This document shows positions 6,193-63,263 of a DNA stretch of 64,000 nt, piece by piece (within the stretch, counting starts at the first letter, position 1; each line of letters starts with the position of its first letter). The translations under genes and the position numbers were made by a program. The notes under the pieces were generated by a model that had not been told where the DNA came from, did no database searches, and saw only the letters and a list, made by a program, of their open reading frames with translations. The stretch is from a virus, in IMG/VR virus record IMGVR_UViG_3300036766_001793, positions 32,001-96,000 of that record, one strand, 5' to 3'.

Positions 6193-6193
6193 C

Positions 6194-7089: not shown

Positions 7090-7093
7090 GGTC

Positions 7094-8549: not shown

Positions 8550-8772
8550 CGAGCGCCTCCCTCCGGACCATCTCTTCGTACTCCCGCTCGGACGCCTCGT
8601 GGCAGCTGCACAGGCACCCGTCTGCCAGGCACTGCTCCGCGGGGTCGTCAGAGAAGCACCCCATGCAGTAGGCGCCGGGCCAGCCGCTCCACCAGTGGTG
8701 GGCCCCGTCGGAGAGCCCGTGGGGGCTCGGGCAGTCGTGGGCCCCGCGGCGGCAGGACCAGCACTCGGTCAA
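8539..8772 (-). CDS. small Cys/His-rich protein
   Basis: TTG overlaps the upstream stop; CWSC, CMGC, CLCSCH. Confidence 0.5.
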   Translation of the reverse strand: MTECWSCRRGAHDCPSPHGLSDGAHHWWSGWPGAYCMGCFSDDPAEQCLADGCLCSCHEASEREYEEMVRREALGGV

Positions 8773-29341: not shown

Positions 29342-29649
29342 GGCGCCGTCCCGCCGAGCCGTGCGCCCCTCTCTAGGAGTGGCGCCATCGCCACGTCGGG
29401 GTGGCGCGAGAGGCGGCCCACCGCATCCATAGGAACATTAGCGCACAGCGTCCGCCGCGACGCGGAGGACTCGGTAATTACGCCGGTGAGGCTCCATACG
29501 AGGTCTTCCACCGGGCGGAACCCCTCCATCCGCGGCCCCGGCTCAAGGTCGTCCCTAAGCCTAATCCCCACATCCGGGAACCATTTCAGCCTGGCCGCCA
29601 GCTCGGGGGAGACCCGATCGGTATCCGTCAGGTCGTAGTCGAGCGTCAT
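29338..29649 (-). CDS. hypothetical protein
   Basis: ATGA-coupled to the HNH stop. Confidence 0.5.
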   Translation of the reverse strand: MTLDYDLTDTDRVSPELAARLKWFPDVGIRLRDDLEPGPRMEGFRPVEDLVWSLTGVITESSASRRTLCANVPMDAVGRLSRHPDVAMAPLLERGARLGGTAP

Positions 29650-30353
29650 AGTGGCCCCCTTCTCGCCGTCAACATGCCGAGGTCGGAGGGCCACTCGTTC
29701 TTGCGGTGGCCGCCCAGGTGGCAGGGCGTGCACAGGGTCGCTAGGTTCCCGGGCTGGCAATCCCGCTTGTCGTAGTTCAGGTGGTGCGCGTGCGGGCTCC
29801 CGCCGCGGAGGTCCGCCCCGCACAGGGCGCACGCGTACCCGTCCCTCTCCCAGACCCTGCGCCGGGTCCTGGGCCACCCCGGCGGGTACGCCTGGCCCGC
29901 CGCCGGCGCCCTCCCGTGGGCCCGGCAGCACCCCTTGACCCTGGCGAGCGAGGGGGAGGTGACGATGACCGCGTCGCAGCCGGGGTAGTGGCAGGTGCGT
30001 GAGACAGACTGGTCCTTGTTGGGAGGTTTGGCTCCCTTCGGCCATTTCCAGCTCTTCCCTTTGGTCGTGCCGCCCGCCAGGCGTCTGGGGTCGTCCTCGG
30101 GCCATTTATGACCCAGAGTTGGGGTCTTGCCGGCCCTCTTCTCTCGCAGCTTTGACTTGGTCTCGTCGCTGTGGACGCCGCACCCGCACCCCTCCTGGCA
30201 CGGCTGGCGGCCGGCGGGCTCGATCCCGAGCCTCTTGAATGCGTAGCTCACAGCGGAGACAGAGCACCCGACCTCCTCTGCGACGTGCCTCAGGGGCTCC
30301 TCTGCCCTGGCGATGACCCAGTCCTGGTCTGCTAGCTGCGGATACCTTGGCAC
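29646..30353 (-). CDS. free-standing HNH homing endonuclease (HTH + NUMOD-like + HNH)
   Basis: RDGYACALCG...HAHHLNYDKRD...NLATLCTPCH; HSDETKSKL; TATCAT-N6-GTG. Confidence 0.88.
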   Translation of the reverse strand: MPRYPQLADQDWVIARAEEPLRHVAEEVGCSVSAVSYAFKRLGIEPAGRQPCQEGCGCGVHSDETKSKLREKRAGKTPTLGHKWPEDDPRRLAGGTTKGKSWKWPKGAKPPNKDQSVSRTCHYPGCDAVIVTSPSLARVKGCCRAHGRAPAAGQAYPPGWPRTRRRVWERDGYACALCGADLRGGSPHAHHLNYDKRDCQPGNLATLCTPCHLGGHRKNEWPSDLGMLTARRGPL

Positions 30354-30460
30354 GCTCACATGATACCGGATCCACCGACGGACAGGGTGCAGGAAGTAGC
30401 AAAGGCTCGCTCTGCGCTCCATTGATGTCAGTATTAGGTGTCTTTATTATTGGACCATGG

Positions 30461-30519: not shown

Positions 30520-31938
30520 CTAGGTCAGGTTTAGCCCATCGGAAAGATCCGTGATCTTGCTCTGCTTGACGAAGTCGTAGCAGCGCAGCTGGAGACTCGT
30601 GAGAAATATGCCCTTTATCCCAAGCATATTGTTCTGCAGGTAGTCCCTCGACTCGAGGTACTGCGTGGTGAACAGCACCGGGAGCTCCAGGAACCTGGTG
30701 TCGAGGACGTACACGTTGGCGCCGCGCCTCGAGTCGCCGTTCGCGGCGAGCTGGTAGGAGGTGGCGGAGTCGAAGTCGTGGAAGAGCGGGATGCCCTTGT
30801 AGGTCGCTACCTGGAAGCCGGTCGGGTAGCCGAGGAGCGTGCCCTCCCCGCCCTGCTTCACCTGGAAGGTGCCCTCCCCGATGAAGTGCTGGTTGGCCTG
30901 CAGGATGGTGCCGAGCCGGGTGACCTGCTCGATGCCGGTGTAGATGAGGTCCGGCTCGCCGGCGTTGCGGCGGACGCTGTCGATGGCCTGGTCGATCATG
31001 CCGGTGCTGAGGTGCCTGAGGGCCCCCGCGCCCTGCGAGAAGACCTGGCTGGCGCTCCAGGCGGCCGGGTCGCGGTCGGCGGTGACCAGCGAGCCGTAGC
31101 CCGCGGCCTCGGCGCCGGAGAACCCGGTCCCGTTGACGTTCAGCCCCGTGACGTTCACGACGTCGTCGAGGGACGAGAGGCCCGCCCTCTGGCGGACGTA
31201 CAGGATGCGGTCGGTCGTGGTCGTCTGGTCGAACTGCAGCGTGGTGCTGAGGCCGCCGACGGTCACGACGATGTCCTGGGACTGGCCCGCCTCGCGGAGG
31301 ACGTCGCCCTCGGTGAGCCAGGAGGCGTCGACCACGGCGACGTTGTTGTTGGCGGCGGCGCCGGTGACGACGCGCTGGTTAGAGGACGCGACCAGCATCT
31401 GGTTGACCCTCTTGATGTGGTCGATCATCGCGGTCTCCTGGGCGACGGCGAGGGCGTCCCCGATGCCGCCTTCGAGCGTCCCGAGGAACTGGGCCAGCGC
31501 CGAGACGCCGAGGGAGGTCACGATGAAGACCGGCTGGACGTACACCGTCTGGAGCGTCGGGCTCGCGATGGTCGGCAGGGCGCCGATCTCGGAGACCGCC
31601 CTCGTCGAAGTGTTGCGGCCGGACCTGATCCTGTAACCAGTGGTGTTGCCCCACGCGACCTTGCGGATCAAGTTGAAGACGCGGGTCTGGCTGTTGAGCG
31701 AGTCCCACACCTTCGAGCCGAAGGTATTCGTGAAGAAGGACGTCCCGATGACCGGCGAGCCGGCGGAGGTGATGTCCTTGGAGAGGACCGAGCTGCCGGG
31801 CCCGAAGTACCCGTAGTTCAGATCGACCCCGCTGCCACCAGGGGTGCGCTGCAGCCAGTCGGCGATGCTGCGGGGCTGGTAGATGCCGGTCCCGAACCCG
31901 TCGGCCTTGGAAATCGTGGAAGCTGGAATTGACGTCAT
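30520..31938 (-). CDS. major capsid protein (HK97 fold)
   Basis: follows the acidic scaffold; extreme GC3; FGSKVWDSLN, PDLIYTG, YKGIPL, VYVLDT motifs. Confidence 0.88.
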   Translation of the reverse strand: MTSIPASTISKADGFGTGIYQPRSIADWLQRTPGGSGVDLNYGYFGPGSSVLSKDITSAGSPVIGTSFFTNTFGSKVWDSLNSQTRVFNLIRKVAWGNTTGYRIRSGRNTSTRAVSEIGALPTIASPTLQTVYVQPVFIVTSLGVSALAQFLGTLEGGIGDALAVAQETAMIDHIKRVNQMLVASSNQRVVTGAAANNNVAVVDASWLTEGDVLREAGQSQDIVVTVGGLSTTLQFDQTTTTDRILYVRQRAGLSSLDDVVNVTGLNVNGTGFSGAEAAGYGSLVTADRDPAAWSASQVFSQGAGALRHLSTGMIDQAIDSVRRNAGEPDLIYTGIEQVTRLGTILQANQHFIGEGTFQVKQGGEGTLLGYPTGFQVATYKGIPLFHDFDSATSYQLAANGDSRRGANVYVLDTRFLELPVLFTTQYLESRDYLQNNMLGIKGIFLTSLQLRCYDFVKQSKITDLSDGLNLT

Positions 31939-31970: not shown

Positions 31971-32846
31971 TTAGATGACGCCAGCCGGCAGATCGCCGAG
32001 CTCCACGCGGAGCCTGTTGATCTCGCTGAACGAGCGGTTCCTGAGGCCCTTCGACAGCTCGGCCATGTCGACCGCGCGCTCGGACTTATCAAGCTTGGAC
32101 GATGACCCGACGCCGGGGGCGACGGACTTGTTGATGCGGCTGACGCCGGCGGCGTCCAGGGCCTGCCTGACGCCGCGGTTGATCATGGCCTCCAGCCGGG
32201 CCGCGGTCACGAAGGTGCCCTGGCCCTTGCTGATCGGGCCCGGACCGGCGCCTGGGCCGCCCTGGACGATGGTGTCGTCCTCGCCCGGGTTCGTCTGGTC
32301 GTAGGGCCGGTTGCCTGGGGCGGTGTCGTCCTTCTCGCCGAAGCTCGAGGCCGCGTCGTCCTTGGCGACCTTGGAGCCGGCCTTGCTCGTCTTGGGCCCC
32401 TTGGACTTGCTGGCCTTGGACTTGCTGGTCCTGGCGAGGTTCAGGGCGTCCTCGTCCATGTCCTGGACGTCCATCGGGTCCTGCTCGCCCTCGTCCTCGT
32501 CCTCGGCCTCGTCATCGAAGCCCTCGTCGTCGAAGTCCTTCGTGAGCATGGCCTTCTGGACCTTGGCCAGAGCGTTGACGCTCTTGGCCAGCGCCCCGAG
32601 GCTCTGCTCGATGCGGCCCATCCTGTCGTCCGAGGAGGCCAGTTTCGTGCGCGGGCCGTGGACCCTCTTGCCCTTGTAGGCCAGGTCGTCCATGTCGTCC
32701 GCGGCGTCCCCCTCGGCCATGTCGTCGTAGTACTCGTTATCGCCGGTGCCCTGGTCACCCATGCTGCCGGTCGGGTCCCCGCCGAAGCCGTCGTCGCCGT
32801 CCTCCGGATTCGGGGCCAGCTTGATGAGGGTGCTCGTCTTTGACAC
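31971..32846 (-). CDS. capsid scaffolding protein
   Basis: acidic and disordered with a coiled coil; directly upstream of the MCP. Confidence 0.75.
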   Translation of the reverse strand: MSKTSTLIKLAPNPEDGDDGFGGDPTGSMGDQGTGDNEYYDDMAEGDAADDMDDLAYKGKRVHGPRTKLASSDDRMGRIEQSLGALAKSVNALAKVQKAMLTKDFDDEGFDDEAEDEDEGEQDPMDVQDMDEDALNLARTSKSKASKSKGPKTSKAGSKVAKDDAASSFGEKDDTAPGNRPYDQTNPGEDDTIVQGGPGAGPGPISKGQGTFVTAARLEAMINRGVRQALDAAGVSRINKSVAPGVGSSSKLDKSERAVDMAELSKGLRNRSFSEINRLRVELGDLPAGVI

Positions 32847-46308: not shown

Positions 46309-49077
46309 CTAGGTCACCGAGAGGTCGTCGAAGAACGCCTTCCCCGTGGTGCTGCCCGGGGACCCGGGCGCGGCGAGCCTGATTGTGACGAACCCGGCGG
46401 CGGTCGGGGTGAAGGTGAGCGAGATCTGCTCCCAGGCCCCGGACGGCCCCACCATCTGGGCCTCGTCGTCGGCCACGCCGATCTCGGTGCCGCCGAGGAC
46501 CGACATCGTGGGGGCGTGGTTGAACCGGTACCCGTACATCGAGTACGCGCTGGCTGCCGCGAACTCGTTCATGCTCACCACGTACTTGCCCTTGCCGATT
46601 ACCCCGAGACCGCCGCCGGCGCCGCCGAGCACCGTGCCTGGGCTGGCCACCTTGGTCCCGAACGCGCCGGCGCTCCACGGGTAGAAGTGGATGTATGGGG
46701 AGGTCCAGGTGTGGACCCCGATGTAGTTGCCGCCGGCCAGCCAGGACAGGCCGCCGTAGTCGGCAGGGGCTCCTGGGAGGGTTCCCGGGTCAGAGACCTT
46801 GGCCCCGAAGCCGGTCGTGAAGGGCCAGACGACTATGAACGGGGTGGTCCTCCCGATCACCCCGACGTAGGCGCCGTCCGGGCTCCAGGCCAGGCCCAGG
46901 CTGTTGCCGCCCGCCAGCGTCCCGGGATCGGCGACCTTGGCCCCGAACCCGGCGCTCCACGGGTACACCGAGATGAACGGGGTGGTCGTGTGCGCCACGG
47001 CTATGTAGGTCCCGGCCGGGCTCCAGGCCACCTGGCCGCCTGTGTCGGCCGGCAGGGTCGCGGGGTCCGCTACCTTGGCCCCGAAGGCGCCCCCGCTCCA
47101 CGGGTAGACACTCACGTACGGGCTGGTATTGTGCGACACCGCTATGTAGTCGCCGGCCGGGCTCCACGCCACCGAGTGGGCCACGCCGGTCGGCAAGGTG
47201 GCCGGGTTGGAGGCCGCGGCCCCCACCGCTCCCGTGGCGGCGTCGAACGGGAAGACCTGCACGTACGGACTGCCGGAAAAACACACGGCCAGGTAGGTCC
47301 CGTCCGGGCTCCACGCGCAGGCCCCCTGGACGCCGCCCGCGAGGGTGGCCGGGTCCGGGGACCGCCTCCCCATCTGGCCTGTGGACGGGTCCAGGGAGTA
47401 GACCTGCAGAGTGACATTCCCGGAGACCGCCAGGATCCACTTCCCGCCGGGGTGCACGGCCACGTTCACGTACGGGCCCAGGACGTCCTGTATCGGGGCG
47501 ACCTGGTTGCCGTACTTGAACGCGGCGTAGTTCGAGTCGTACCTGGCGTACACTCTGACCGTCGTGGCGGCGGCGCCGACCGGCAGCAGGAAGTCCCTCG
47601 ACCCGCCCTGGTCGAACCTCAGGGAGTAGGAGCCCGTGCGGATGGTGGAGGCCTCCCTCGCCGCCGACGGCAGCTCCAGCGCGCCGGACGTCACGGTCAC
47701 CTTGGCCGACGAGGGCCTCGACGACCTGGTCAGGTCCTCGCCGGCCGGGGCCACCACCCCCTCCGCCGCCTTGCCGAGCCCGCCAACCGCGTCGAACGGC
47801 GTCCCGAACTGGAGCGGCTGGGCGCCGAACGTCCTCTCGTGGCCGAACGCGAAGAACGGCCCCGGGTTGTTCACACCGAGCAGCGACGTGTTCCCGCCGG
47901 CGGTGACGTTCGTCCCTATGGCCGGGGCGCTAGCCCCGTGGGACAGCCAGACGTTGTTGTTCTCGGTCACCTGTCCCGACGTCATGTTCAAGAAGACGGC
48001 CGTGGCGCCCCCGCCGACCATCCCGACGTTGTAGAAGAGCTTCCAGTTCCTCGTCGGCACGCCGGTCACCTTGCCGCTCGCGCTCAGGGTCGCGAGGATG
48101 TTCGACGACAGGTCCCCCATCATGAACGTGCAGTGGGTCACCGTAAGGTCGGACAGCTTGACGGCGCTGTCGGTGCCGGTTGAGCCGTTGCTAGATGCCA
48201 GCAGTATCCTGGGGACGCCCGACGGGGCCAGGCTGAGGAACATGCAGTTTCGCACCGTCATCCCGAGGGAGAACTCCGTGGTCGTCCCGCTGACGGAGTA
48301 GTTTATGTATATGTCGGGGATGTTGCCCGCGCCGGTCGTCCAGAAGTAGCACCGGTCGAGGAGTATCTCGCCCACGGACTTGGCCGACGCGGCGAGCAGC
48401 ACGTTGAAGTTCCCCCGCTCCGCGTTCACCGTGGTGGTCCCGATGGAGGACTTCAGGAACGCGCAGTCTATGAACCTGAATATGTTTCCCGCCGTGCCGT
48501 TTCCGACGGTGACGCCCTTGGCGCCGCCGGGGTTGAAGCTGACGTTGCGGAACTCCAGCGCGGTGGCGTTCCTGAGGTCGGCCGCCCCGAGCTGCACCTC
48601 TCCGGGGGAGTCCCCGGTGTGGGACCCGTCGTAGTCGCCCTGCACGACGACCGTCCCGACCTGGCCCGGTGAGGCCCCGACCGTCCAGGCGTCCGAGCGG
48701 TAGTCGCCCGGGCCGACGTACACGGCGTCCCCCGCGATCGACACCGGGGCGCCGTTGACCGTCTTCAGGTCGAACACTGCCTTCTGGAGTGTGAGGAACG
48801 CGCCGCCCACCGTCCAGGTCCGCCCGGTCTGGGTGGTGCCGAGGGCGGAGCCGAGCGTGAGCGTGTGGGCGTCGGGGACGGCGACGATCTTCCTGATCGA
48901 GACGGTCGTCGTGTTGACCTGGACGTAGTGGCCGACGTCGGCCGAGGTCCAGGCCGCGGAGGCGGACGTGAGGGTCGTGTTGCTGGCGGAGACCCCGTCC
49001 GTGCCGGTGCTGCGGACCGCGGGCGAGGTCCCGCCGTTCGCGTCGGAGCCGGCCTTCCTGACGTAGAGCGCGGTCAC
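46309..49077 (-). CDS. adhesin: beta-helix + WD40-like propeller inside a CBM-like sandwich
   Basis: beta-helix rungs (DCAF, DRCYF, RNCMF, THCTF); near-identical AWSPxGxYIAV...GAKVADP blades. Confidence 0.75.
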   Translation of the reverse strand: MTALYVRKAGSDANGGTSPAVRSTGTDGVSASNTTLTSASAAWTSADVGHYVQVNTTTVSIRKIVAVPDAHTLTLGSALGTTQTGRTWTVGGAFLTLQKAVFDLKTVNGAPVSIAGDAVYVGPGDYRSDAWTVGASPGQVGTVVVQGDYDGSHTGDSPGEVQLGAADLRNATALEFRNVSFNPGGAKGVTVGNGTAGNIFRFIDCAFLKSSIGTTTVNAERGNFNVLLAASAKSVGEILLDRCYFWTTGAGNIPDIYINYSVSGTTTEFSLGMTVRNCMFLSLAPSGVPRILLASSNGSTGTDSAVKLSDLTVTHCTFMMGDLSSNILATLSASGKVTGVPTRNWKLFYNVGMVGGGATAVFLNMTSGQVTENNNVWLSHGASAPAIGTNVTAGGNTSLLGVNNPGPFFAFGHERTFGAQPLQFGTPFDAVGGLGKAAEGVVAPAGEDLTRSSRPSSAKVTVTSGALELPSAAREASTIRTGSYSLRFDQGGSRDFLLPVGAAATTVRVYARYDSNYAAFKYGNQVAPIQDVLGPYVNVAVHPGGKWILAVSGNVTLQVYSLDPSTGQMGRRSPDPATLAGGVQGACAWSPDGTYLAVCFSGSPYVQVFPFDAATGAVGAAASNPATLPTGVAHSVAWSPAGDYIAVSHNTSPYVSVYPWSGGAFGAKVADPATLPADTGGQVAWSPAGTYIAVAHTTTPFISVYPWSAGFGAKVADPGTLAGGNSLGLAWSPDGAYVGVIGRTTPFIVVWPFTTGFGAKVSDPGTLPGAPADYGGLSWLAGGNYIGVHTWTSPYIHFYPWSAGAFGTKVASPGTVLGGAGGGLGVIGKGKYVVSMNEFAAASAYSMYGYRFNHAPTMSVLGGTEIGVADDEAQMVGPSGAWEQISLTFTPTAAGFVTIRLAAPGSPGSTTGKAFFDDLSVT

Positions 49078-49476: not shown

Positions 49477-49965
49477 CTACTGGTGGTCGGGGGGTGGATC
49501 GACGGCCTCCGACTCTCTCGGCAAGTGCGCGCCGGCCTGGCGGCGCCGCACCCACGCCTCGAACGCGGCCTGCGAGAACGACTCGCGCGCCTCGTCGTTG
49601 AACGTGCGGCCACGGCGCGCCGCTCCCATCTTTTGCTTAGTCTCGTCTGAGGCCTTCCTCCCGATGCTCGCTTCGCGGATGTGCTGTTTGTGCTCCTCGG
49701 TCAGCCTCTTCCCCGCCTGCGCCTTCTTCTGCGATTCTGACATCTTCGCCCTAGTCTCGTCGGAGCGCCTCTGGCCAGTGTGCGAGGCCGCCATCCTGGC
49801 CCTGGTCTCGTCTGAGGCCTTCCTCCCGGTGAGGGTCCGCGAGATCGCCTCTCTCTGTTCCTGGGGGATAGTTCTGCCGCGCTGGGAGTCGCTGATCTTC
49901 CTCTTGGTCTCCTCGCTCTGCGGGTGGCCAACGCGCTTCTTGGGCTCGTCGCGCGAATCATCCAT
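49477..49965 (-). CDS. NUMOD3-repeat protein, no nuclease domain
   Basis: about seven SEETKRKIS-type repeats. Confidence 0.75.
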   Translation of the reverse strand: MDDSRDEPKKRVGHPQSEETKRKISDSQRGRTIPQEQREAISRTLTGRKASDETRARMAASHTGQRRSDETRAKMSESQKKAQAGKRLTEEHKQHIREASIGRKASDETKQKMGAARRGRTFNDEARESFSQAAFEAWVRRRQAGAHLPRESEAVDPPPDHQ

Positions 49966-50542
49966 CCTGTCGGCCCTGTCCTTTCAGAGCACGCCGTCGC
50001 TCCATGCTCGCCCTGCTCATCGGGTTCCCATCCCCTGACGCCCTCTCGCTCGCGGCGTCCTTGACCTCCCGAGTGCGTGTCCTGCCGCGATTGGCGTCAC
50101 CGATCTTCTTGCGGGTCTCTCCAGTCGTCTCGTGCCCCATTAAGGCCGCGCTGAGCTTCTTCCGCGTCTCGTCAGATACGACTCGCCCGATCATGCTGGC
50201 CGACACCTTGGCCCTGGTCTCGGCAGAGGGAACGTAGCCTTTCGGCTGGCCATCCCCTCCGGAGGTCACGTTGAGGAGCGGCACGCCTTTCGACTTGAGC
50301 TCCGCTATCCACCATCGTTCCGCCTCGTCGATGTCCTCTGGGTCTTCCTCGAGAACGATCACGTCGGGGACGATGCCACGAGAGCGGATCCAGTCGCAGA
50401 GAGGGCTCCTCCGCTTCTTGATTGGGTGGGTCGCGGCCCAGTAATGCTGGTCGCGGCGTTTCTCAGCGGCCAGTGTCGTCTTGCCAACATACCTGACGAG
50501 GAACTTGTTCTCTGGTTCATGCAGGGCGTAGATGATCTCCAT
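49958..50542 (-). CDS. GIY-YIG homing endonuclease with NUMOD3 repeats
   Basis: IIYAL...RYVGKT...R..QH...E..WI...LLNVTSGGDG; TACTAT-N6-ATG. Confidence 0.88.
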   Translation of the reverse strand: MEIIYALHEPENKFLVRYVGKTTLAAEKRRDQHYWAATHPIKKRRSPLCDWIRSRGIVPDVIVLEEDPEDIDEAERWWIAELKSKGVPLLNVTSGGDGQPKGYVPSAETRAKVSASMIGRVVSDETRKKLSAALMGHETTGETRKKIGDANRGRTRTREVKDAASERASGDGNPMSRASMERRRALKGQGRQDG

Positions 50543-50673
50543 GAAGGCATAGTACCACAACAGAGAGATTTATTGGTTAGATAGTCTGCCCGCTAAGCTA
50601 TCTCGTGCATCTGGCGGCTGGCCCCCAAGCCGTTCCGATGGGCACAACTAGCCTGGGATGGACAAAATGTCTA

Positions 50674-52921: not shown

Positions 52922-53977
52922 CTACTCCGCCAGGGCCGCGATGTCCGCCTCGTCGAACCGCACCACCGCCGCGAGGCCGTGGTCCCGCACCAGCGCCGCG
53001 TCCCTCTTCCTGTCACGCCACACCTGCTGCCGGGTGAGGACGTGCCACCGGGCGCCGTCCGCCTCGAAGGCGATGTTGTACTCCCTGTCGTAGAGGTCCA
53101 CGGAGTACCGGCCGAAGCCTATCTCGCACTCCACGTCGTGGCCTGCCTCACGGAGGAACCTGTAGAGTGCCGCGTGGATCCTGCTGGGCCACCTCCGGTA
53201 GCCGAGCTGCCGGGCGCTCTGCCGGCCCTTCCTCTGGTGCTCGGTCCACTGGGCGACCAGGGCCGGGTTGGTCCTGCACAGTTCGCTACGCTCGGCCCTC
53301 TGCTCGTCGGTGAACTTGCGCCCTGAGTTCGGGCCGGTCTTGCCGAGGCTGGCCCATGTCGCTCGCGAACTCTCATTTCGCGCCGCCATCACGTCTGGCT
53401 GGCAAGTCGTTGTGTAAGAATGTGGACCGCCGCACGCCCGGCAGGTCGGCTTCGCGCGGCCCGGGTGCGTCTTCCCGGCGTTGGCCTTACCAGAAATTCC
53501 ATCGTGCTTCCGACACTGGCAGCCAGATTCGCAGGCCTTCCCCGGCTGTCCTGCCCTAGCTGCCCTAATAGCAACCTTACGCGCCTCACGCTCTTCATCA
53601 GTCATGTTAGCCCAACGGAGTTTCACCAACTGCCCGATTCGAGCCTTGACTGGCTGCATCCCTGCCGAGATAGCAGCCCGACGCTTCTCAATGGTACCGT
53701 CCTCTTTAGACCGAGCCCATCCTTGCGCCGCACTGAGACTTTGCCGGTCCCTCTGTTCCTGTGTCTTCTTGACTCCAATCCGAGGTGGTCGATTCTCTTT
53801 TGGCTTAGGGCCTCCTCTGGTCCCCATGCCAGTTCGCATCTCTGTTCCGAGTAATTTGAGATGTGTCTGGATCGGCCGGAAGCTGCAGCCTATTTCCTTG
53901 CCGATAGCATTGAGGCCGGACCCCGCCTCGTACATGGACAGGATCCGGCCTGACTGTTCCTCTGTGAAGCTTATCAT
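52922..53977 (-). CDS. free-standing DUF559/Vsr-like homing endonuclease with HTH, NUMOD and Zn modules
   Basis: GRYSVDLY...AFEADG..WH...DRKRD...VVRF; TACAAT-N6-ATG. Confidence 0.85.
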   Translation of the reverse strand: MISFTEEQSGRILSMYEAGSGLNAIGKEIGCSFRPIQTHLKLLGTEMRTGMGTRGGPKPKENRPPRIGVKKTQEQRDRQSLSAAQGWARSKEDGTIEKRRAAISAGMQPVKARIGQLVKLRWANMTDEEREARKVAIRAARAGQPGKACESGCQCRKHDGISGKANAGKTHPGRAKPTCRACGGPHSYTTTCQPDVMAARNESSRATWASLGKTGPNSGRKFTDEQRAERSELCRTNPALVAQWTEHQRKGRQSARQLGYRRWPSRIHAALYRFLREAGHDVECEIGFGRYSVDLYDREYNIAFEADGARWHVLTRQQVWRDRKRDAALVRDHGLAAVVRFDEADIAALAE

Positions 53978-54041
53978 GCACTCATTGTACACTACTTAGC
54001 CCCAGATGTAAACAGTTGAAATTAAGTTTAGGTTATGCTCT

Positions 54042-55673: not shown

Positions 55674-56954
55674 CTAGCCCACCAGCCTCCTGTTGCCGAA
55701 TGCTAGCAGTTTCCCGCCTACGAGGGGACCCACTTTCGATGCTGCTTCTCTGATAATGAACAACACCGTATAAAACGGCGGCTCGGCTGTGCCAGAGTCC
55801 ATGCCGGGGTCGCCCGTGCCCGCCCACGACTGAGCGGCGCCAGAGGTTGAGGCGGTGTGGGTGTGCGCCGAAACGTGCACGACGTAAGTGGGGCCCTCCC
55901 CGAGGCTAGCCGAAGAGCCAGTCGCCCCCGCCAGTGTTACCGTGCCAAGCGTGTGAGTGTGCCCTGTGGCGGTCGTGTGTGCATGGCTATACGTATGGGC
56001 GTGGGCATTGGCTCCTCCGGTTCCGCCAGCATCGCCATTGGCGCCCTTGAGCATCCTGTTATCGAGATTGGGAGTGCCGGTCCCGTTACAAAGCGACCAT
56101 CCCGCAGGAATAGAGCCGACCGTCCCTGTCCAAATGGCTATGGTGTTGACCGGCGCCGCCGTGGCGGCGTCTGCCTTAATGTGTGTCACCGCGTAGTAAG
56201 GCGGGTTGTTGCTGCCGGACCCCGAGCCCGTGGACTGCCCCGACAGCGTGTCGGTGGCGGCTGCTATCGTCCCGGAGGGGGCATGGGTATGCGAGCCGAC
56301 GAGGTACACCGTAATATAGTCGTTCGAACCCGCAGTGCCCGGTACGGTCGTACCTATCGTAAGTGTATGGTCGGTGTGCGACGGATACGTGTGGGTGTGA
56401 CTGGACTGGGTGTGAGTGTGGCTTGCCGCACCACCCGTGCCACCACCATCTCCGCCAGTAGTCATGCCTTTAAGATATTTGTCCCCTGACGACGCGAGCG
56501 CCGTGAATCCAGTCGGCGCAGACGCGCCGTCGTACCATGCAACGACACCTGTCGAGATGTCGGTGGTGCCGTTGCTCTGGATAAAAATCGCGCGGATGAA
56601 CGACGGCTCGTTGCTTATGGTGTCGCTGTTTGCGGCACTTGAGGCGCCCGAGGTTTGCGTGGAGGTGGCGTAGGTTTGGGTGTGAGTGTGGGACAGGCTG
56701 GCCCCGGTGTCATCCGTGTTAACGGGCTGCGTATCGGTCGGGATGCTCGTGTCGGCGCTAACGTGACTGTGGCTCGCAGAGTGCGTGTGGGCCGGGGTGT
56801 TGTGCAGGTGGGTTGTAGCTCCACCCGTACTGCCCACTGTGGTCAGGTTACCCTTCGGGAAGTTGGCATCTAACGCAGTGACACGCGACCAGCCAGCGGG
56901 AATGCTGGCGCTTGTGCCAGTCCACGCCATGACGATGCCGTTCGGGAGGGCCAC
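55674..56954 (-). CDS. fibre tip protein with three tandem collar + HxH needle units
   Basis: three copies of (I/V)xxWxG...P.G(W/F)...KG...GG..H.H...(E/N)P.(F/Y)....I. Confidence 0.75.
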   Translation of the reverse strand: MALPNGIVMAWTGTSASIPAGWSRVTALDANFPKGNLTTVGSTGGATTHLHNTPAHTHSASHSHVSADTSIPTDTQPVNTDDTGASLSHTHTQTYATSTQTSGASSAANSDTISNEPSFIRAIFIQSNGTTDISTGVVAWYDGASAPTGFTALASSGDKYLKGMTTGGDGGGTGGAASHTHTQSSHTHTYPSHTDHTLTIGTTVPGTAGSNDYITVYLVGSHTHAPSGTIAAATDTLSGQSTGSGSGSNNPPYYAVTHIKADAATAAPVNTIAIWTGTVGSIPAGWSLCNGTGTPNLDNRMLKGANGDAGGTGGANAHAHTYSHAHTTATGHTHTLGTVTLAGATGSSASLGEGPTYVVHVSAHTHTASTSGAAQSWAGTGDPGMDSGTAEPPFYTVLFIIREAASKVGPLVGGKLLAFGNRRLVG

Positions 56955-57493: not shown

Positions 57494-57685
57494 CTACCTC
57501 CCGGCCGGGTGGTACGCGTCCACCAGGGCCATGATCTCGTCGACGAGGGAGTCGGCCTTCCGGAGCGCCGACAGGTCGGGCCCGCCGCGGCCGTCGGTCG
57601 GGACCATGCCGGACACGCGGTCCTCTACCTCGGCCCTGAGCTGCGCCCTGGACATGGCGCGCGCCTGGTCGTAGATGCTCCGCAT
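57494..57685 (-). CDS. small hypothetical protein
   Basis: TGATG coupling to the protease stop; contains LRKA. Confidence 0.55.
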   Translation of the reverse strand: MRSIYDQARAMSRAQLRAEVEDRVSGMVPTDGRGGPDLSALRKADSLVDEIMALVDAYHPAGR

Positions 57686-60600
57686 CAGCCCGGCCCCACC
57701 GTCGTCCGCCCGCCCGCTTCCCTCGCCGGGGCCGCGCTCTTGGCTGGGCCGCCCTTCCTGAACTGCTCCGGCTCCGCGCCTGACACCTGCCCGACCCCGC
57801 GATCGAGCGAGACCTCGAACCTCTCGCCGGCGGACACCAGCCACAGCCTGTCGATGGCGATCGGCGAGGTCTCGGTGACCGGGATGCCGCGCCGCTCGAG
57901 GTCGTCCATGCCGGCCGGGTCGTACCTGAGGGTCATGTGCGGCGTGAACCCGTGCCTCCCGTCGACCGGGACCCCGACCTCCCTGAGGGCACCGACGAGC
58001 TTGGCCCTGAACTCCGAGAGGCCAGGCACGTCCACGAGGGCGACGAGCGGGACGCGCCCGTCGTCCCCCGGGGAGAACCTGCCTAGGCCCCCGATGCTGC
58101 CGTCCATCGGCCTCTGCTCGAGGGCGCAGTGCCTCAGGACCCCGAGGGCCCTCTCGACCCCGTCGTCCCCGAGGTCGTTGGCGGCGTCGTCCGTGAGGTA
58201 CGCGATGGTGACGTGGAGCTCGTCCGCGTCCTCACCGCCGTCGGTCGCGAGCTGCCTCGCCAGGCCGCTCTCCGGGAACCAGGCCACCATGGCGCCTGGG
58301 TGCGGGCCCTCAGCCTCCAGGTGGCGCTCCTTGAACCCCTCCGGGAGGTTCTCCGGGCCGCCCTTGTTGGAGAGCCCGTCCAGGTCCTCCGGGCCCCTGA
58401 TGGTGTCGCTCTTCTCTGACTGACCGAGGTCCCCCCTGAGGCCCCGGTGGAAGTCGTCTGCCCCGCCCTTGGAGACCCTGCCGAGAGCAGCGTCGGTCTT
58501 GGCGACGTCCTTGTAGGTGCTCCCGGCGCCGGCCTCCTTGATGATCCCGTGCTCCGGCTCCTCGCCCATCCTCACGTACTGGCCGAGCGCCATGCCTTCG
58601 ATGACGCTCTCCGCGTCCTCGTAGAGGGACCCAAGCGCCGCCATGACGGTGGGGTCGAGGTTGCCTCCCCCGTCCCCGACCGCGGCCTCCAGCTGCTTCC
58701 TCACGCCGTCGAGGGCGGCCGCCGGATCGCCCCGCACGGTCGAGTCCCATGCCTTGGCGAGGCCTGACAGCGCGGACGGCGGGAGGCCGGGGGCCAGGGT
58801 GGCCGCCCTCACGATCGCCGCGGCCTTGCCGGCCGCCTGGCCGGCGGTGAGCGGGACCGACTTCCGAAGCCTCTCCTGGGCTACGCCGGCCGCGTTGAGG
58901 GCCTCCCCCGCCCCCGCCCGCGTCGCCGCGTCCCTGAGGCCCTTGAGGAGCCTCCCGAGCCTGACGTACGCCCGGTCAGGCCCGAAGGCAGTCCCGTCAG
59001 TCCAGAGGACGAAGTCGCTCCTCTGCCCCGGGATCCAGGTGAGGCTCGGGCTGCCGAACCTGATGGCCGCCGCCGCCGCCCTGGCGTCCCCCTCGAGCCC
59101 CTTGTCCAGCCTGACCGAGTCCACGGCGGCCTCCACGGCCGCGAGGACCTCCTTGATGACCATCGGCACGTACGAGTTGTCAGGGGCGGCCAGCTTCGGG
59201 GTCTTGACCTTCCCCTGCGTGACAGGCTGGACCTTCTCCTCGTCGCCCTGGACGAGCCTGAAGCCGCCATGCGACGCCCAGACGTCGCTGAGGTTGAGGT
59301 ACTGCCTCTCCCCGTCCGGGTCGGCCAGGGGGGCGTCCGGGGCGACCCCGTACGTCGGCCTGGGCCCGTACCGCTCGGCCATCTCCCGGGCGCCCGGGGT
59401 CTCCACGCCCGCCCTCGCCCGCTCGAGCTTGGCGGCGGACGCCGGGTCGAGCTTCCCCTCCTCGCCCCCCTCCTCGGCCAGGACCTTCGAGTAGTACCTC
59501 GGGTCCTCCGCGAGGTGGTCCCTCACTATGTTGGCGATGGAGCCCACGTCGCCGCCGACGCTCTCGTAGTGCTCCGCCGACTCCGTCTCCAGGCCCTCGT
59601 CGAACTCGTCGACCCCGTCCCGGGACTTCCCCACCGCGGAGGTGGCCTGCCTGGCCAGCTTCTCTATGTCGCCCGCCTGGTCCTTGAGCTCCTCCCTGAG
59701 GGCGGGGTTGTCCCCGATGTGGTCGGGCTCCCACCAGGCCAGGGCCTCGAACTGGTCCCCGTCGGGATCGTCCGGGTTGATCATCTCGTCCCGCTCCCCT
59801 AGGGGGAGGAGGTCCTCCCCGTCGATCCTCCACACGAACCCGGCGTATACTCCGTCCGGCGACTCCCACTGGGAGGCCAGCCCGCCCTCGGGCAGCGGCC
59901 TCCCGACCTCCTCTGCCCACTCCCTCTTGGCGGCCCCCAGCGGACTCTCCCCCGGCTCGAGGCGCCCCCCGGGGAACTCCCAGGTGCCGCCGGCCGGGTC
60001 GTCGCCCTCAGCCGCCCTCTGGAGCATAAGGACGCGCCCAGTGTCGCCGGCGACCACCGCCAGCCCGGCCGCCCTGACGCCGCCGCCGACCGGCCCAGGG
60101 GCGTCCTTGGCGATGGACCCGAACTCCCTGTCTATCATCGCCTGGACCCTCGGGTCCACCATCCCCCTCAGTCCCTTCAGGAACTTGGCGAACTTCGGGG
60201 TCGTCGGCTCCGGCACGAGCCGGTTGGCCGGCGAGGGCGGCGTGGCCTCCGGCCCGCTGGACTCCAGGCCCTTCGGGCCGGCCGCCTCGTCGGCGACGCC
60301 CTCGAAGAGCATCCTCCCTGACTCAGAGCGGTAGCCCTTCAGCACCATGGCCGCCTGGGCCGGGGTGACTGGGCAGCGCCCGTCCCCGCACCACGCGGAC
60401 GCGGCGAACTCGCCCGCCTCGTCGAAGGACTTCGAGATGACCGTGAACTTGGCGTCCTGGTTAACGGGGCTCTCGCAGTTGTGGACGACGCCCTCCTTCA
60501 TGGTGTAGGAGTTGTCCTCCTCGACCTCAAGGTTGTACACGGTGCCCTTATACGGCTCGGTGCCGATGGTCGTCACCCTCACGAGGGCATTCCCGGCGAA

Positions 60601-62547
60601 CTCCTCCACAATCGGGGCCACATCGAGCCCGTTCACCTCCGACTCCCAGAGCACCAGAGTCTCGTAGCCATGCTTCGCGAAGTGGTCCAGGCGGTTCTGC
60701 GGGTCTTGACCGCTGTGGAAATAGTCCCCGTAGAGCTCGATGAGCTTCGTCCCGCCGTCCCAGAAGTCCGGGCCCCTCCCGCCGATAACGAGCTGCCCGT
60801 CGCCCACGAACCTGAAGCCGTACGTCCTAGCGAGTGGCTCGAACACCTTCTCCAGCTTGTTCTGCCCGACGTTCCGCACCGCCATCTGCCTGGCCACATA
60901 TGCCGGATCCCTCCACTGGGCGGATGTGATGGCCCTCCTCTTCGCGCGGAACCCGTCGGTCTTGACAGAGGCCCTTTGGACCGCCCTGCCGGCCTCTGTT
61001 TTAATGCCGCCCTTGCCGGGATGTCTCAGCCCCCTGACCTTAGCCGCATGAGAGATAGCGCCAGGGTCGCCTGAGGCTACTGTCTTGCCCCTCCTGTTCG
61101 GGACTTTGGCCTTGCACTGGATGTCGCAGAACTTCTTAGTTGGCTTTGAGGAGAACATGGGGGCGCCACAGGCCTCGCAGAGCCGAGAAGGCTCGTGATA
61201 CGAGATGAGGTCGCCCACGACGAGGTCTTTTGCCGGCACCCACTCGTACTTCGATCCCTCGCCCCTGCCCCTATACCTCATCACCCTGAACGGGTGCTCG
61301 CCCGTCGGACTAATGATCCCCCGCTCGGTCGTGATCCTGACCAGGTCCTCGTCGACCTCCCGCTGCATGGTCCTGACGACCGGGCGCCACCTGTTCTTGT
61401 GGGTCCACACGAGGTCCCCGGTCATAACGTCCTTGATCTTTTTAAGCCCGGACTTCGTCCACACGGGCTCATTTCCCTTAAAACAAAGTGTAACTTCGTA
61501 TAGTACGATTTCGTCTATCACCCAAAAGCATGTCCCGCCCGCACACTCGTGGCGCCTGGACTCGAACGGGGCGTCGGCCGAGATGGAGAAGGCCGCGAGC
61601 TTCCCGCTCTCTATGTCGTCGATGACCTTGTCGACGATCGGCGGGCGCGCCGCGTCGGTCCTGACCCTGACCACGGTGAAGAGGCCGACCTCGTCGACTT
61701 TCGTCTCGTACCGCTCCCCGGTGCGTGGGTTGGTCCATGACGGAATGACTTCCCCGACCTGGACGTTCGAGTTATGGTAGATGACCCCCTTGCCGGCGTA
61801 GGAGTGGTCGTCCTCCACCTCGAGGTTGTACACCCACCCGTCGAACGGGATCTTCTCGGCGGAGAGGACCTCCACCCCATTCGTCACGACCTCCCTGGCC
61901 TCCTCGTTCCTCCTAGCGTTGGAGGCTTCCCTGGTCCTCTCGGTTATGTGGGACGAGTCGCCCTTGAAGAGGTAATTCCTTGGGTGCTGGTCGGCTAGCT
62001 CCCACGACCGATGGCCCTTCTTAACCAGGTGGTGGAGCATGTCCCCTGCCACAAGGTCGCCGGCTCTCGTCCACCCCTTCCCGACCACGAGCACCTGGTG
62101 CTCGTCTGTGATGTGGACTGTCTCCCCGTTGCCGAGACGGAGCTCGACGACCTCGTTTGGCCCCTTGTGCTTGAACACGTGGGTGACGGGCATGAGCCTG
62201 CCCTTGTGGGTCAGCACCCTGTCGCCCACCTTGATGACCTCTATCCTGGTGAACGTGGACCCAGAGACCCCATTGCCTCCGACCTTAATCGGGGTCCCGG
62301 CCTCAAGGCAATGGAGCAGATTGACGTTTCTGTAGTGCGGATGCGCCATGAACCTCGGGAGGTCCCTCGCGAGGGCCTCCTTCGTGATGACGTGCTTCTC
62401 GCGGTCCACGATTTGTGGCGAACTGTAGCCGGCCACGATGAGGGGCTCGCGTCCCTCGGCCTTCTGGAGGACGGAGACCGCGCCGTACCTCCTGAGCGGG
62501 TACTGCGTCACGGAGGACTCCACCACGGACGACCAGCTGTCAGCCAT
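57685..62547 (-). CDS. prohead maturation protease with two inteins, fused to Nudix, DUF5661-like and 2H phosphoesterase domains
   Basis: VAGYSS..VD...LLH|SNVQVGEV...AFSIS...LYEVTL|CESPVN; Nudix box GGRLEPGESPLGAAKREWAEEVG; EH...DHLAEDPRYY; LHVT and PHMT. Confidence 0.9.
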   Translation of the reverse strand: MADSWSSVVESSVTQYPLRRYGAVSVLQKAEGREPLIVAGYSSPQIVDREKHVITKEALARDLPRFMAHPHYRNVNLLHCLEAGTPIKVGGNGVSGSTFTRIEVIKVGDRVLTHKGRLMPVTHVFKHKGPNEVVELRLGNGETVHITDEHQVLVVGKGWTRAGDLVAGDMLHHLVKKGHRSWELADQHPRNYLFKGDSSHITERTREASNARRNEEAREVVTNGVEVLSAEKIPFDGWVYNLEVEDDHSYAGKGVIYHNSNVQVGEVIPSWTNPRTGERYETKVDEVGLFTVVRVRTDAARPPIVDKVIDDIESGKLAAFSISADAPFESRRHECAGGTCFWVIDEIVLYEVTLCFKGNEPVWTKSGLKKIKDVMTGDLVWTHKNRWRPVVRTMQREVDEDLVRITTERGIISPTGEHPFRVMRYRGRGEGSKYEWVPAKDLVVGDLISYHEPSRLCEACGAPMFSSKPTKKFCDIQCKAKVPNRRGKTVASGDPGAISHAAKVRGLRHPGKGGIKTEAGRAVQRASVKTDGFRAKRRAITSAQWRDPAYVARQMAVRNVGQNKLEKVFEPLARTYGFRFVGDGQLVIGGRGPDFWDGGTKLIELYGDYFHSGQDPQNRLDHFAKHGYETLVLWESEVNGLDVAPIVEEFAGNALVRVTTIGTEPYKGTVYNLEVEEDNSYTMKEGVVHNCESPVNQDAKFTVISKSFDEAGEFAASAWCGDGRCPVTPAQAAMVLKGYRSESGRMLFEGVADEAAGPKGLESSGPEATPPSPANRLVPEPTTPKFAKFLKGLRGMVDPRVQAMIDREFGSIAKDAPGPVGGGVRAAGLAVVAGDTGRVLMLQRAAEGDDPAGGTWEFPGGRLEPGESPLGAAKREWAEEVGRPLPEGGLASQWESPDGVYAGFVWRIDGEDLLPLGERDEMINPDDPDGDQFEALAWWEPDHIGDNPALREELKDQAGDIEKLARQATSAVGKSRDGVDEFDEGLETESAEHYESVGGDVGSIANIVRDHLAEDPRYYSKVLAEEGGEEGKLDPASAAKLERARAGVETPGAREMAERYGPRPTYGVAPDAPLADPDGERQYLNLSDVWASHGGFRLVQGDEEKVQPVTQGKVKTPKLAAPDNSYVPMVIKEVLAAVEAAVDSVRLDKGLEGDARAAAAAIRFGSPSLTWIPGQRSDFVLWTDGTAFGPDRAYVRLGRLLKGLRDAATRAGAGEALNAAGVAQERLRKSVPLTAGQAAGKAAAIVRAATLAPGLPPSALSGLAKAWDSTVRGDPAAALDGVRKQLEAAVGDGGGNLDPTVMAALGSLYEDAESVIEGMALGQYVRMGEEPEHGIIKEAGAGSTYKDVAKTDAALGRVSKGGADDFHRGLRGDLGQSEKSDTIRGPEDLDGLSNKGGPENLPEGFKERHLEAEGPHPGAMVAWFPESGLARQLATDGGEDADELHVTIAYLTDDAANDLGDDGVERALGVLRHCALEQRPMDGSIGGLGRFSPGDDGRVPLVALVDVPGLSEFRAKLVGALREVGVPVDGRHGFTPHMTLRYDPAGMDDLERRGIPVTETSPIAIDRLWLVSAGERFEVSLDRGVGQVSGAEPEQFRKGGPAKSAAPAREAGGRTTVGPG
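60478..61485 (-). mobile_element. intein 2 (336 aa) with Zn finger + Vsr/DUF559-like endonuclease
   Basis: CFKGNEPV...TGEHPF...VYNLEVEEDNSY...VHN|C; internal PDF...IELYGDYFH...LVLWESE. Confidence 0.9.
61771..62310 (-). mobile_element. intein 1, mini-intein (180 aa)
   Basis: CLEAGTPI...TDEHQV...VYNLEVEDDHSY...YHN|S; inserted right after the conserved His. Confidence 0.9.
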
Positions 62548-62824
62548 TGGCTACATCGTATTTCGGGGGCCGCCCCCTGCGGAGCCCCCCGCCGGCCGTC
62601 GGGGTGCTCACGTCCCGCCCCACCATCGGGGCGCCGGTCGCCGGCCCAGCGCCGCCGTCACCCCCGCCGGCCTCCTTCATGACCGCCGCCGACAGGCGTA
62701 TGGCCAGGTCGAGCGCCGACCCGCGGGCCACCCTCCCGCGGGCGAGGGCCCTACCGGCCGCCCGCTCCCTTGGGCTCCTGCTCCTCATGAGCTGCTTCGC
62801 CACCGCCCGCCTCGGGTTCTGCAT
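62540..62824 (-). CDS. hypothetical protein
   Basis: overlaps the protease start; start uncertain (62788 possible). Confidence 0.35.
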   Translation of the reverse strand: MQNPRRAVAKQLMRSRSPRERAAGRALARGRVARGSALDLAIRLSAAVMKEAGGGDGGAGPATGAPMVGRDVSTPTAGGGLRRGRPPKYDVANG

Positions 62825-63071
62825 CCCCTGCCTCCAGCCTCCCCGCCGCGAGGTCGTCGGCCATGAGCCCCAGGGCGTACAGGACGTCGTCGAGCGAGCC
62901 CATGTTGAACGCTATCCCGCGGCCCGGCGTCGGAGCCCCTTTGTCGTCGGGGTAGTACTCCCTGACGTGGGCCTTCCAGGACCCCTTCCACCTCACCGCG
63001 GAGACGCGGAGCTGCGCCCGCTCGCCCCTCCTGTCGTACAGCGGGATGGAGGTGTAGATCCTGTCTGGCAC
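62751..63071 (-). CDS. PC4/YdbC-like ssDNA-binding protein
   Basis: LRVSAVRWKG...HVREYY...G..TPGRGIAF; TATAAT-N6-GTG. Confidence 0.75.
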   Translation of the reverse strand: MPDRIYTSIPLYDRRGERAQLRVSAVRWKGSWKAHVREYYPDDKGAPTPGRGIAFNMGSLDDVLYALGLMADDLAAGRLEAGDAEPEAGGGEAAHEEQEPKGAGGR

Positions 63072-63111
63072 GCGTCGATTATAGGGCGCGGGAACCTTCA
63101 GCGCGGCCCTC

Positions 63112-63186
63112 TGGCTCCGCCCGAGGGCATCGAACCCCCGCCATCCTGGTCCAACGCCAGGCGTGCTACCACTACACCAGGGCGGA
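63112..63186 (-). tRNA. tRNA-Gln(UUG) with G33
   Basis: TCCGCCC/GGGCGGA-G-CCA; AC arm CCTGG-CGTTGGA-CCAGG. Confidence 0.88.
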
Positions 63187-63189
63187 GTC

Positions 63190-63263
63190 TGGCTCCATCG
63201 GATGGACTCGCACCACCGTGACATGTTTCAGAGACATGCATCCTACTGCTAGATGACGATGGA
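63190..63263 (-). tRNA. tRNA-Gln(CUG)
   Basis: TCCATCG/CGATGGA-G-CCA; CATGT-CTCTGAA-ACATG; T loop TGCGAGT. Confidence 0.85.

Follow-up and report, generated by a model that had tools for sequence, protein, structure and literature searches.

Can the protease that matures a phage head also carry enzymes into that head, cut them free and send them into the next host cell with the DNA? The question is raised by one gene of a linear IMG/VR virus (record IMGVR_UViG_3300036766_001793; 165,484 bp, approximately 87% complete and approximately 70% G+C), analysed here in a stretch of 64,000 nucleotides, bases 32001-96000 of the record, that is referred to as the window. No near-DNA relative of the virus was found in the collection of deposited phages. 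The open reading frame (ORF) encodes a prohead protease of the S78 (HK97) type, interrupted by two inteins, and behind it an extension that begins at residue 691 and holds four cargo parts: a Nudix domain, DUF5661, a family-specific helical domain and a 2H phosphoesterase (Table 1). The gene thus joins S78, Nudix and 2H in a single ORF, that is, effector domains on a capsid-resident protein as in the polyvalent proteins of Iyer and colleagues. A first-pass annotation had placed such a polyprotein at 57685-60420 with a run-on of about 900 amino acids after the protease. That span is a real part of the ORF but takes in no more than the final 912 codons, beginning at residue 710; the run-on amounts to 930 residues, and every feature quoted in the annotation was recovered at its coordinates when checked on the translation.

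Identification of the N-terminal part as a prohead protease, also proposed in the first-pass annotation, holds through homologues that lack inteins. The three protease pieces (exteins) of the window protein gave no Pfam match when searched separately, and the S78 identity is therefore taken from intein-free homologues that pass the Peptidase_S78 gathering score of 21 bits, namely P0002 (26.5), P0007 (23.9), P0024 (23.0) and P0026 (24.4); the first three share approximately 72% overall identity with the window protein. After conceptual splicing, the 194-residue protease domain is 83% identical to the N-terminus of P0002 without a gap. A PDB sequence search with the protease domain of a homologue found no solved relative. 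The motifs NLLH↓SNVQVG and FSISADAP (arrows mark splice junctions or predicted cuts) are kept in all aligned homologues with a protease domain (P0002-P0005 and P0007), and, going by the S78 motifs, we take the His of the former and the Ser of the latter to be the likely catalytic residues.

Both inteins carry the expected splicing residues (C80, TDEH and HN259↓S260 in intein 1; C355, TGEH and HN690↓C691 in intein 2), both drop out cleanly at precise points in an alignment with seven homologues, and both are predicted to be splice-competent. Intein 1 directly follows the conserved NLLH and is unique to this ORF, as none of the seven homologues in the alignment has it. Intein 2 splits the conserved EVTL↓C(E/S)(T/S)PVN, is common to P0005 and has left remnants in P0006 and in contig L001, which belongs to the P0008 lineage. 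It contains a Cys-rich stretch and a nuclease-like, non-LAGLIDADG insert (PDFW...ELYGDYFH...LWESE), in which no Pfam family match and no LAGLIDADG or HNH signature was found. Because the inteins sit within conserved protease motifs, the protease is not expected to fold before both have left, so an active protease would need two protein-splicing events, and head maturation and cargo release alike would depend on protein splicing. A literature search for inteins in prohead proteases gave nothing specific.

Evidence on how cargo could be released comes in part from outside the extension. Hydrophobic-x-Lys-small residue had been proposed as the cutting code from the linkers of the polyprotein, and the capsid-protein leaders and the scaffold lend it independent support. 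The major capsid protein of the virus has a short leader ending in ISK↓ADG, which served as the reference for protease specificity. Leaders were then surveyed in 104 homologues in which a conserved D-W landmark could be located. In 96 of them the leader, 4-27 residues long, ends in [ILVMF]-x-K. Among these 96, the P3 residue is Leu, Ile or Val in 93, P2 is mostly Asn, Ser, Asp or Gln, and P1' is Ala, Ser or Gly in 80; the Lys lies 11-20 residues before D-W, and exactly 11 residues before it in 67. A few capsid homologues have no leader at all. Judged from the sequences, this is the pattern of a removed propeptide, and it agrees with HK97, which cleaves its capsid protein at K103/S104 (PMC10275583).

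The product of the gene directly upstream of the capsid gene is probably the scaffold, and it is packed with the same motif. Its strict motifs reach 17 per 1000 amino acids against 0.66 genome-wide, the highest motif density in the genome, and its loose motifs, defined as [ILVFM]-x-K-[SAGDN], number 8 where 0.75 are expected (P = 1e-6). A further site, [IL]-[SQ]-K↓[SA], directly follows the protease domain in 12 of 12 related proteases. Taken together, the capsid leaders, the scaffold, the invariant site after the protease and the boundaries at which modules change (see below) indicate that (I/L/V)-x-K↓(S/A/G) is very probably the site cut by the protease of this phage family.

The extension is enriched in the code. 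It has 11 loose motifs, against 3.2 +/- 1.7 in shuffled sequences (P = 0.0004) and against 2.4 expected at the rate of the other proteins of the genome, an approximately 4.6-fold excess (Poisson P = 4e-5), and 31% of its lysines lie within a motif compared with 11% genome-wide. The first-pass annotation had listed seven sites that bracket the domains, starting at residues 704 (ISKS), 812 (IAKD), 972 (VGKS), 1147 (LDKG), 1227 (LRKS), 1358 (VSKG) and 1596 (FRKG). In an AlphaFold2 model of residues 691-1620 (20-sequence alignment, mean pLDDT, the predicted local distance difference test, 66.8), which has three confident domains with disordered stretches between them, the bracketing applies to five of the seven: ISKS, IAKD, VGKS, VSKG and FRKG fall at borders of order and disorder, but LDKG and LRKS lie inside a confidently folded domain. 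With one more site, the border set in the model comprises ISK↓S at 706, IAK↓D at 814, VGK↓S at 974, VSK↓G at 1360, SEK↓S at 1379 and FRK↓G at 1598. Cuts at these borders are predicted to yield six products: the protease, a linker peptide, a Nudix protein of approximately 17 kDa, DUF5661 with the middle domain (approximately 40 kDa), the 2H enzyme with a leader (approximately 25 kDa) and a short tail.

Table 1. Parts of the protease polyprotein and the two other head genes used to derive the cleavage code (window positions; model confidence as pLDDT)
Feature	Position	Strand	Residues	Basis and model confidence
Whole ORF: intein-interrupted S78 prohead protease plus 930-amino-acid multi-domain extension	57685..62547	-	1620 amino acids	
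Protease extein 1, ends in conserved ...NLLH	62311..62547	-	1-79	Homologue alignment, conceptual splice
Intein 1, 180-amino-acid mini-intein with C1, TDEH block B, terminal HN and +1 Ser	61771..62310	-	80-259	Pfam Intein_splicing, 74.5 bits
Protease extein 2 with FSISADAP motif	61486..61770	-	260-354	Homologue alignment
Intein 2, 336 amino acids, with C1, TGEH block B, HN and +1 Cys	60478..61485	-	355-690	Pfam, homologue alignment
End of protease domain (CESPVNQDAKFTVISK) with invariant predicted self-cleavage site ISK↓S	60430..60477	-	691-706	12 related proteases
Mostly disordered linker with short conserved motifs SFDE.GEFA.SA.C.DG.C and NRLVPEPT.PKFAK, ends IAK↓D	60106..60429	-	707-814	Alignment; pLDDT 30-58; model 691-820 low, mostly disordered
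Nudix hydrolase module, bounded by IAK↓D and VGK↓S; Nudix box (residues 860-882) at 59902-59970, GRLEPGE at 59947-59967	59626..60105	-	815-974	Pfam; pLDDT 80-93 (model 821-970); VIA Z up to 14.4
DUF5661 (Pfam match 982-1024) plus low-confidence, largely disordered stretch; EHYES at 59560-59574, DHLAED at 59503-59520	59182..59625	-	975-1122	Pfam; pLDDT below 60; model 973-1122 low, DUF5661 seen only as uncertain helices
Family-specific folded middle domain, helices plus small sheet	58543..59181	-	1123-1335	pLDDT 86-97 (model 1123-1330)
Helical end of middle region, then disordered linker with VSK↓G, SEK↓S and invariant KGGPENLP	58300..58542	-	1336-1416	Alignment, model; 1330-1416 linker, low
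LigT-like 2H phosphoesterase, ends FRK↓G; LHVT at 58207-58218, PHMT at 57931-57942	57754..58299	-	1417-1598	Pfam PF13563, Foldseek, VIA; pLDDT 77-96 (model 1417-1595)
Disordered C-terminal tail plus stop codon	57685..57753	-	1599-1620	AlphaFold confidence; low
Major capsid protein, 472 amino acids, 11-residue leader ending ISK↓ADG	30520..31938	-		phrog_24667; homologues named major capsid protein or with PF17236
Putative scaffold, 291 amino acids, acidic, low-complexity, directly upstream of capsid gene	31971..32846	-		5 strict and 8 loose motifs

The enzymes reported in the extension were all recovered, and the catalytic motifs of Nudix and 2H are intact as read from the sequence. The Nudix box is complete and follows the consensus GX5EX7REUXEEXGU as G860-x5-E866-x7-R874-E875-W-A-E878-E879-V-G881. 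Pfam NUDIX matches residues 826-946 with 61 bits (cut-off 21.1), and fold matches from VIA reach Z 11-14.4. With profiles that are thin, hhalign gave 92.7% probability for T4 NudE over 67 columns and 96.6% for E. coli MutT over 85 columns, so that NudE is not favoured over MutT. A Pro 15 residues after the box, a marker of ADP-ribose (ADPR) pyrophosphatases, is not conserved among the homologues. The domain first noticed by its EH...DHL residues is DUF5661 (PF18905; 32.7 bits over residues 982-1024, gathering cut-off 27); a literature search found no paper that mentions this family.

The 2H domain has both of its HxT motifs, HVT at residues 1445-1447 and HMT at 1537-1539, and Pfam 2_5_RNA_ligase2 (PF13563) matches residues 1440-1545 with 40.1-45.1 bits (cut-off 27). 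The Foldseek comparison that the first-pass annotation had suggested, together with VIA-align, recovered the Nudix and 2H folds and placed the latter with LigT types. Its best structure matches are LigT-type RNA 2',3'-cyclic phosphodiesterases (5h7e, E 2.7e-7; 5h7f, Z 17.1; 1vgj, Z 16.7; LigT 4qak, Z 15.2), followed at Z 13-14 by AKAP18, Usb1 (13.4), rotavirus VP3 (13.3) and mouse hepatitis virus (MHV) ns2 (13.1). An hhalign comparison with E. coli ThpR/LigT aligned both motifs at a probability of 31%, a weak value from thin profiles. The annotation had invoked kinship with Acb1, which stands at the level of the superfamily and fails at that of the family, the domain being LigT-like: the match to the Acb1 profile (PF23474) reaches 12.8 bits where 27 are required (E = 0.1, 16 residues only), and hhalign with T4 57B, again with a thin profile, gave a probability of 17% over 26 columns that include the second HxT motif only. 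Acb1 structures are absent among the 50 Foldseek and VIA matches listed, which is not evidence of different folds. Neither the Nudix nor the 2H substrate can be read from sequence or fold.

Between these enzymes lies the folded middle domain. No Pfam or PHROG match and no shorter relatives were found for residues 1100-1360; an ESM Atlas feature search returned only sub-threshold rows, and structure searches with the whole model gave lists filled by the Nudix and 2H domains. Fourteen proteins have the domain; they all come from the hits obtained with the extension as query, and those checked for domains carry S78 and/or 2H. Since it is present also in forms without a Nudix domain recognised by Pfam (P0009 and P0026), it is the most constant companion of the protease. 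At the C-terminal end, a frameshift was considered and rejected, as the tail has the same length as in the homologues and is merely divergent.

A survey of cargo variation among homologous proteases, another comparison the first-pass annotation had put forward, found that module content changes at the borders marked by Lys sites. P0005 lacks the Nudix domain, with a gap exactly between ...LAK and the start of DUF5661; P0026 consists of S78, the middle domain and 2H; P0002 and P0004 each have DUF5661 twice. After LSK↓A, the P0008 lineage has another, nuclease-like module (D...VVVEAK motif). In this lineage (L001:2-4518, a JGI contig) the gene is split into three overlapping ORFs, the reading frame shifts within intein 2, at a point that separates the endonuclease part from the C-terminal splicing block, and the Nudix...2H part forms a separate ORF of 1004 amino acids; two independent contigs have the identical structure.

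The Nudix module is widespread, with 349 representative clusters at E < 1e-30 and 45-65% identity in proteins of 177-4688 amino acids. When 64 representatives carrying it were scanned for co-occurring domains, 2H (PF13563) was found in 17, MuF in 12, Peptidase_S78 in 9, portal in 8 and ADP-ribosyltransferase in 3; P0010, for example, combines portal, 2H and Nudix. ESM Atlas clusters of S78 with 2H (56 members) and of S78 with Nudix (71 members) are mostly from Actinomycetota, and there is also a viral cluster of DUF2213 with 2H. Fusions of S78, Nudix and 2H in head proteins are themselves common in databases. Relatives in cultured phages come from Gordonia, Arthrobacter, Streptomyces and Pseudanabaena phages. 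Two candidate protease fusions among these were set aside: only the Nudix part of Streptomyces phage Gilgamesh gp52 matches, and Pseudanabaena phage Pam4 gp13, annotated as a protease, is MuF plus Nudix by Pfam. That portal, MuF and S78 proteins all carry the Nudix module, and 2H domains belonging to one Pfam family, is consistent with cargo that enters the capsid on its carrier, and the main comparative argument for this is that all three carrier families reside inside the procapsid.

The reading favoured here, with chances that appear about evenly balanced for the chain as a whole, is that an S78 maturation protease heads a polyvalent protein whose cargo is packaged, cut free by the protein itself, ejected with the DNA and active on nucleotide substrates. 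The whole protein would enter the procapsid, because the protease has to act there. The protease would then free itself at ISK↓S and cleave at five further linker sites (IAK↓D, VGK↓S, VSK↓G, SEK↓S and FRK↓G). At 17-40 kDa, its folded products are too large for the capsid pores, unlike scaffold peptides, so they would be retained in the head and would leave with the DNA at the next infection. In the least certain step, they would hydrolyse nucleotide-based substrates ahead of any phage gene expression; candidates are pyrophosphate-linked compounds for the Nudix enzyme and 2',3'-cyclic, 2'-5' or cyclic-oligonucleotide phosphodiesters for the 2H enzyme, and immune or stress signalling nucleotides would be the most likely targets. 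Certainty falls stepwise from prohead entry, through self-cutting at the borders and then retention and ejection, to early nucleotide hydrolysis. A bolder form of the proposal would make the locus a self-contained, intein-gated delivery cassette, whose enzymes, cut by the Lys code and injected, together erase nucleotide immune signals before phage expression. In this form the Nudix enzyme would attack signals that derive from ADPR or NAD or are pyrophosphate-linked, cyclic oligonucleotides would fall to the LigT-like 2H enzyme, and the linker code would let modules swap among protease, portal and MuF carriers; it is put forward only tentatively and is rather unlikely to hold in full.

Several observations weigh against delivery of nucleotide-cleaving cargo. 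Four of the motifs (LDK↓G, LLK↓G, LRK↓S and LAK↓A) fall within the middle domain, which is folded in the model; they may therefore be left uncut, and part of the enrichment may then reflect helix composition. IAK↓D and VGK↓S are kept only among close relatives. The cleaved domains could be lost before or during DNA packaging, and a literature search for virion, cleavage or enzymatic data on the window protein or its relatives found none. With respect to substrates, the Nudix domain matches MutT, diadenosine tetraphosphate (Ap4A), ADPR and RppH-type enzymes about equally, the 2H domain is nearest to RNA-end cyclic phosphodiesterases and below the cut-off of the Acb1 family model, and the middle domain, the largest conserved piece, has no assigned role. 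A literature search for virion-borne Nudix enzymes also gave nothing specific.

The same domains could be delivered and yet act on RNA and not on immune second messengers, a reading that is possible without being probable. The Nudix enzyme would remove 5' pyrophosphate or NAD-type caps in the manner of RppH or NudC, and the 2H enzyme would open 2',3'-cyclic ends or serve as a Usb1-like RNase; the outcome would be rapid decay of host mRNA, or healing of tRNAs that the host's anticodon nucleases have cut. What keeps this reading in play is that the 2H domain is LigT-like: RNA 2',3'-cyclic phosphodiesterases head its structure matches and Usb1 is among those that follow, and RppH and decapping enzymes are among the tied Nudix matches. 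Fold likeness does not discriminate between substrates, however, as the viral 2'-5' phosphodiesterases VP3 and ns2 match too, and no RNA ligase partner turned up in the annotated part of the window (no genome-wide search was made). An RNase role is one of two options offered for head-fused 2H domains by Iyer et al. (2017, PMC5512222), who also state that such domains never associate with RNA ligases.

It is unlikely that the enzymes are never delivered and act in the producing cell or in the procapsid during assembly, where the fusion would secure late, stoichiometric expression. Their task might be to rid proheads of nucleotides or RNA, or to weaken abortive-infection signals at a late stage, and the fragments would then be expelled or degraded like scaffold. 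The HK97-type protease does digest itself and leave the capsid, and the motifs inside the folded middle domain could mean full degradation. Against this, sites cluster at domain borders, where cuts would set intact domains free and not destroy them; catalytic motifs and folded domains are kept down to approximately 40% identity; and the trait that portal, MuF and S78 carriers of the Nudix module, all of them known also with 2H domains of one Pfam family, have in common is residence inside the capsid. More improbable by far is a mainly structural role for the extension, as a scaffold-like or core-forming element by which the protease docks in the prohead, with the enzymes as minor passengers. 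Protease-scaffold fusions are well known from lambda C/Nu3 and P2 gpO, and the helical middle domain accompanies the protease even where no Nudix domain is recognised. Here, however, the gene directly upstream of the capsid gene encodes a separate acidic, scaffold-like protein packed with cut sites. The extension is then not required for scaffolding, which weakens this alternative, and neither the Nudix box nor the two HxT motifs vary within the family.

The surroundings of the gene are not those of a classical head module. The capsid gene lies 26 kb from the protease gene and a tail-protein match is nearby, which places the protease outside the classical portal-protease-scaffold-capsid block. 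A gene for a PC4-like (PF02229) single-stranded DNA-binding protein (62751-63224, -) is immediately upstream, as it is in the homologous contig L002. Downstream, after approximately 730 bases and two small ORFs, a protein of 426 amino acids (55674-56954, -) matches a PHROG 'tail protein' (E 2e-30), and a protein of 922 amino acids (46309-49077, -) has WD40/beta-propeller signals. Profiles of the HK97 capsid (PF05065) and MuF (PF04233) gave zero matches in the whole genome, and that of the portal (PF04860) gave a single weak match of 13 bits, to an ORF of 1761 amino acids outside the window (G000:C1:132116-137401, -; locus L011:117-5402). Since this ORF contains the splicing blocks of an intein and a LAGLIDADG domain, inteins seem to interrupt a second head gene as well. 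Interspersed with the structural genes are stand-alone endonuclease genes of HNH, homing and MTES_1575-like types (29646-30422, 49958-50560 and 52922-53992, all -), and together with the inteins they mark the genome as rich in selfish elements. Approximately ten otherwise different proteins across the genome share a module YL.PGE.PP.G..V..GPRGG(R/K/Q/L)(F/Y), preceded in some by K↓A; examples are window 27430-28539 (-) and, in genome coordinates (G000), 5999-7258, 7262-8770, 103092-103997, 107555-108559, 109548-111113, 121547-123184 and 162883-164466. The protease polyprotein does not have this module.

Several known systems resemble parts of this arrangement. The internal proteins IPI-III and Alt of phage T4 enter the prohead, are trimmed there by the gp21 protease, stay in the head and pass into the cell with the DNA; IPI* inhibits a restriction system of the host. 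Each is a protein of its own, whose N-terminal capsid-targeting tag is cleaved after Glu (L/I-x-E), whereas the cargo in the window is covalently joined to the protease and predicted to be cut after Lys. HK97 gp4 (Peptidase_S78) belongs to the same protease family, and proteases that enter the prohead with a long C-terminal extension are familiar. In lambda C/Nu3, P2 gpO and HK97 the extension is a scaffold or a short docking tail, which is degraded and does not remain, while the window protein has folded enzymes and the phage a separate scaffold gene. Acb1 (T4 57B) is an anti-CBASS (cyclic-oligonucleotide-based antiphage signalling system) 2H phosphodiesterase of phages that destroys cyclic nucleotide immune signals. 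It shares the 2H superfamily and two HxT/S motifs with the window domain, which falls short of the Acb1 profile; Acb1 is a free early protein that is not known to be packaged. Among cultured phages, Gordonia phages Zitch (gp20), GTE6 and Tiamoceli (gp18) have proteins annotated 'capsid maturation protease/RNA ligase' with a 2H module, and Arthrobacter phages Sonali and Mufasa8 (gp3 in both) have Nudix-bearing head proteins, that of Sonali annotated as a portal-MuF fusion; Pam4 gp13 was described above. Each of these proteins has a single cargo module with 30-49% identity within the module, compared with several in the window protein, and no characterisation of them was found in the literature searched.

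The closest precedent is conceptual. Iyer et al. (2022, PMC9503650) proposed packaging and injection of such proteins, and suggested a possible role against nucleotide-based immune signalling for 2H domains on MuF or portal proteins; they also named a T4 NudE-like Nudix subgroup. The same proposal for 2H in polyvalent proteins was made earlier (Iyer et al., 2017, PMC5512222), and the interpretation given in the first-pass annotation is therefore an existing computational hypothesis. As carriers, the two papers name MuF, portal and a capsid-processing serine peptidase for Nudix, and MuF and portal for 2H. The window protein is alike in that Nudix and 2H are fused to a capsid-resident protein, and the same inference of delivery follows. 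It differs in that both enzymes, DUF5661 and a further domain are joined to one protease, the carrier is predicted to cut its own cargo free, the capsid protein and scaffold allow a cut-site code to be derived, and two inteins gate the protease. In addition, the assemblin-like peptidases described in 2017 are C-terminal (PMC5512222), and the protease here is N-terminal. The MuF polymorphic toxins of temperate phages likewise combine a conserved head-morphogenesis domain with variable C-terminal enzymatic modules that are swapped; in the part of that paper drawn on here, the carrier is MuF, the cargo is a toxin, and a built-in protease or linker code does not appear (Jamet et al., 2017, PMC5576092).

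If the cargo is delivered, ready-made enzymes could act from the moment of infection, ahead of early gene expression, and blunt defences based on signalling (CBASS, Thoeris, type III CRISPR and alarmones) or the RNA metabolism of the host, an idea that rests only on computational inference in the literature searched. The code (I/L/V)-x-K↓(S/A/G) is testable and could help to annotate packaged proteins in other S78-type phages. Set beside the known systems, the locus is a good experimental lead and not a conceptual surprise; what it adds is the combination of four cargo parts on one protease, an independent cleavage code with a product map, module exchange at the sites of the code, and double intein gating.

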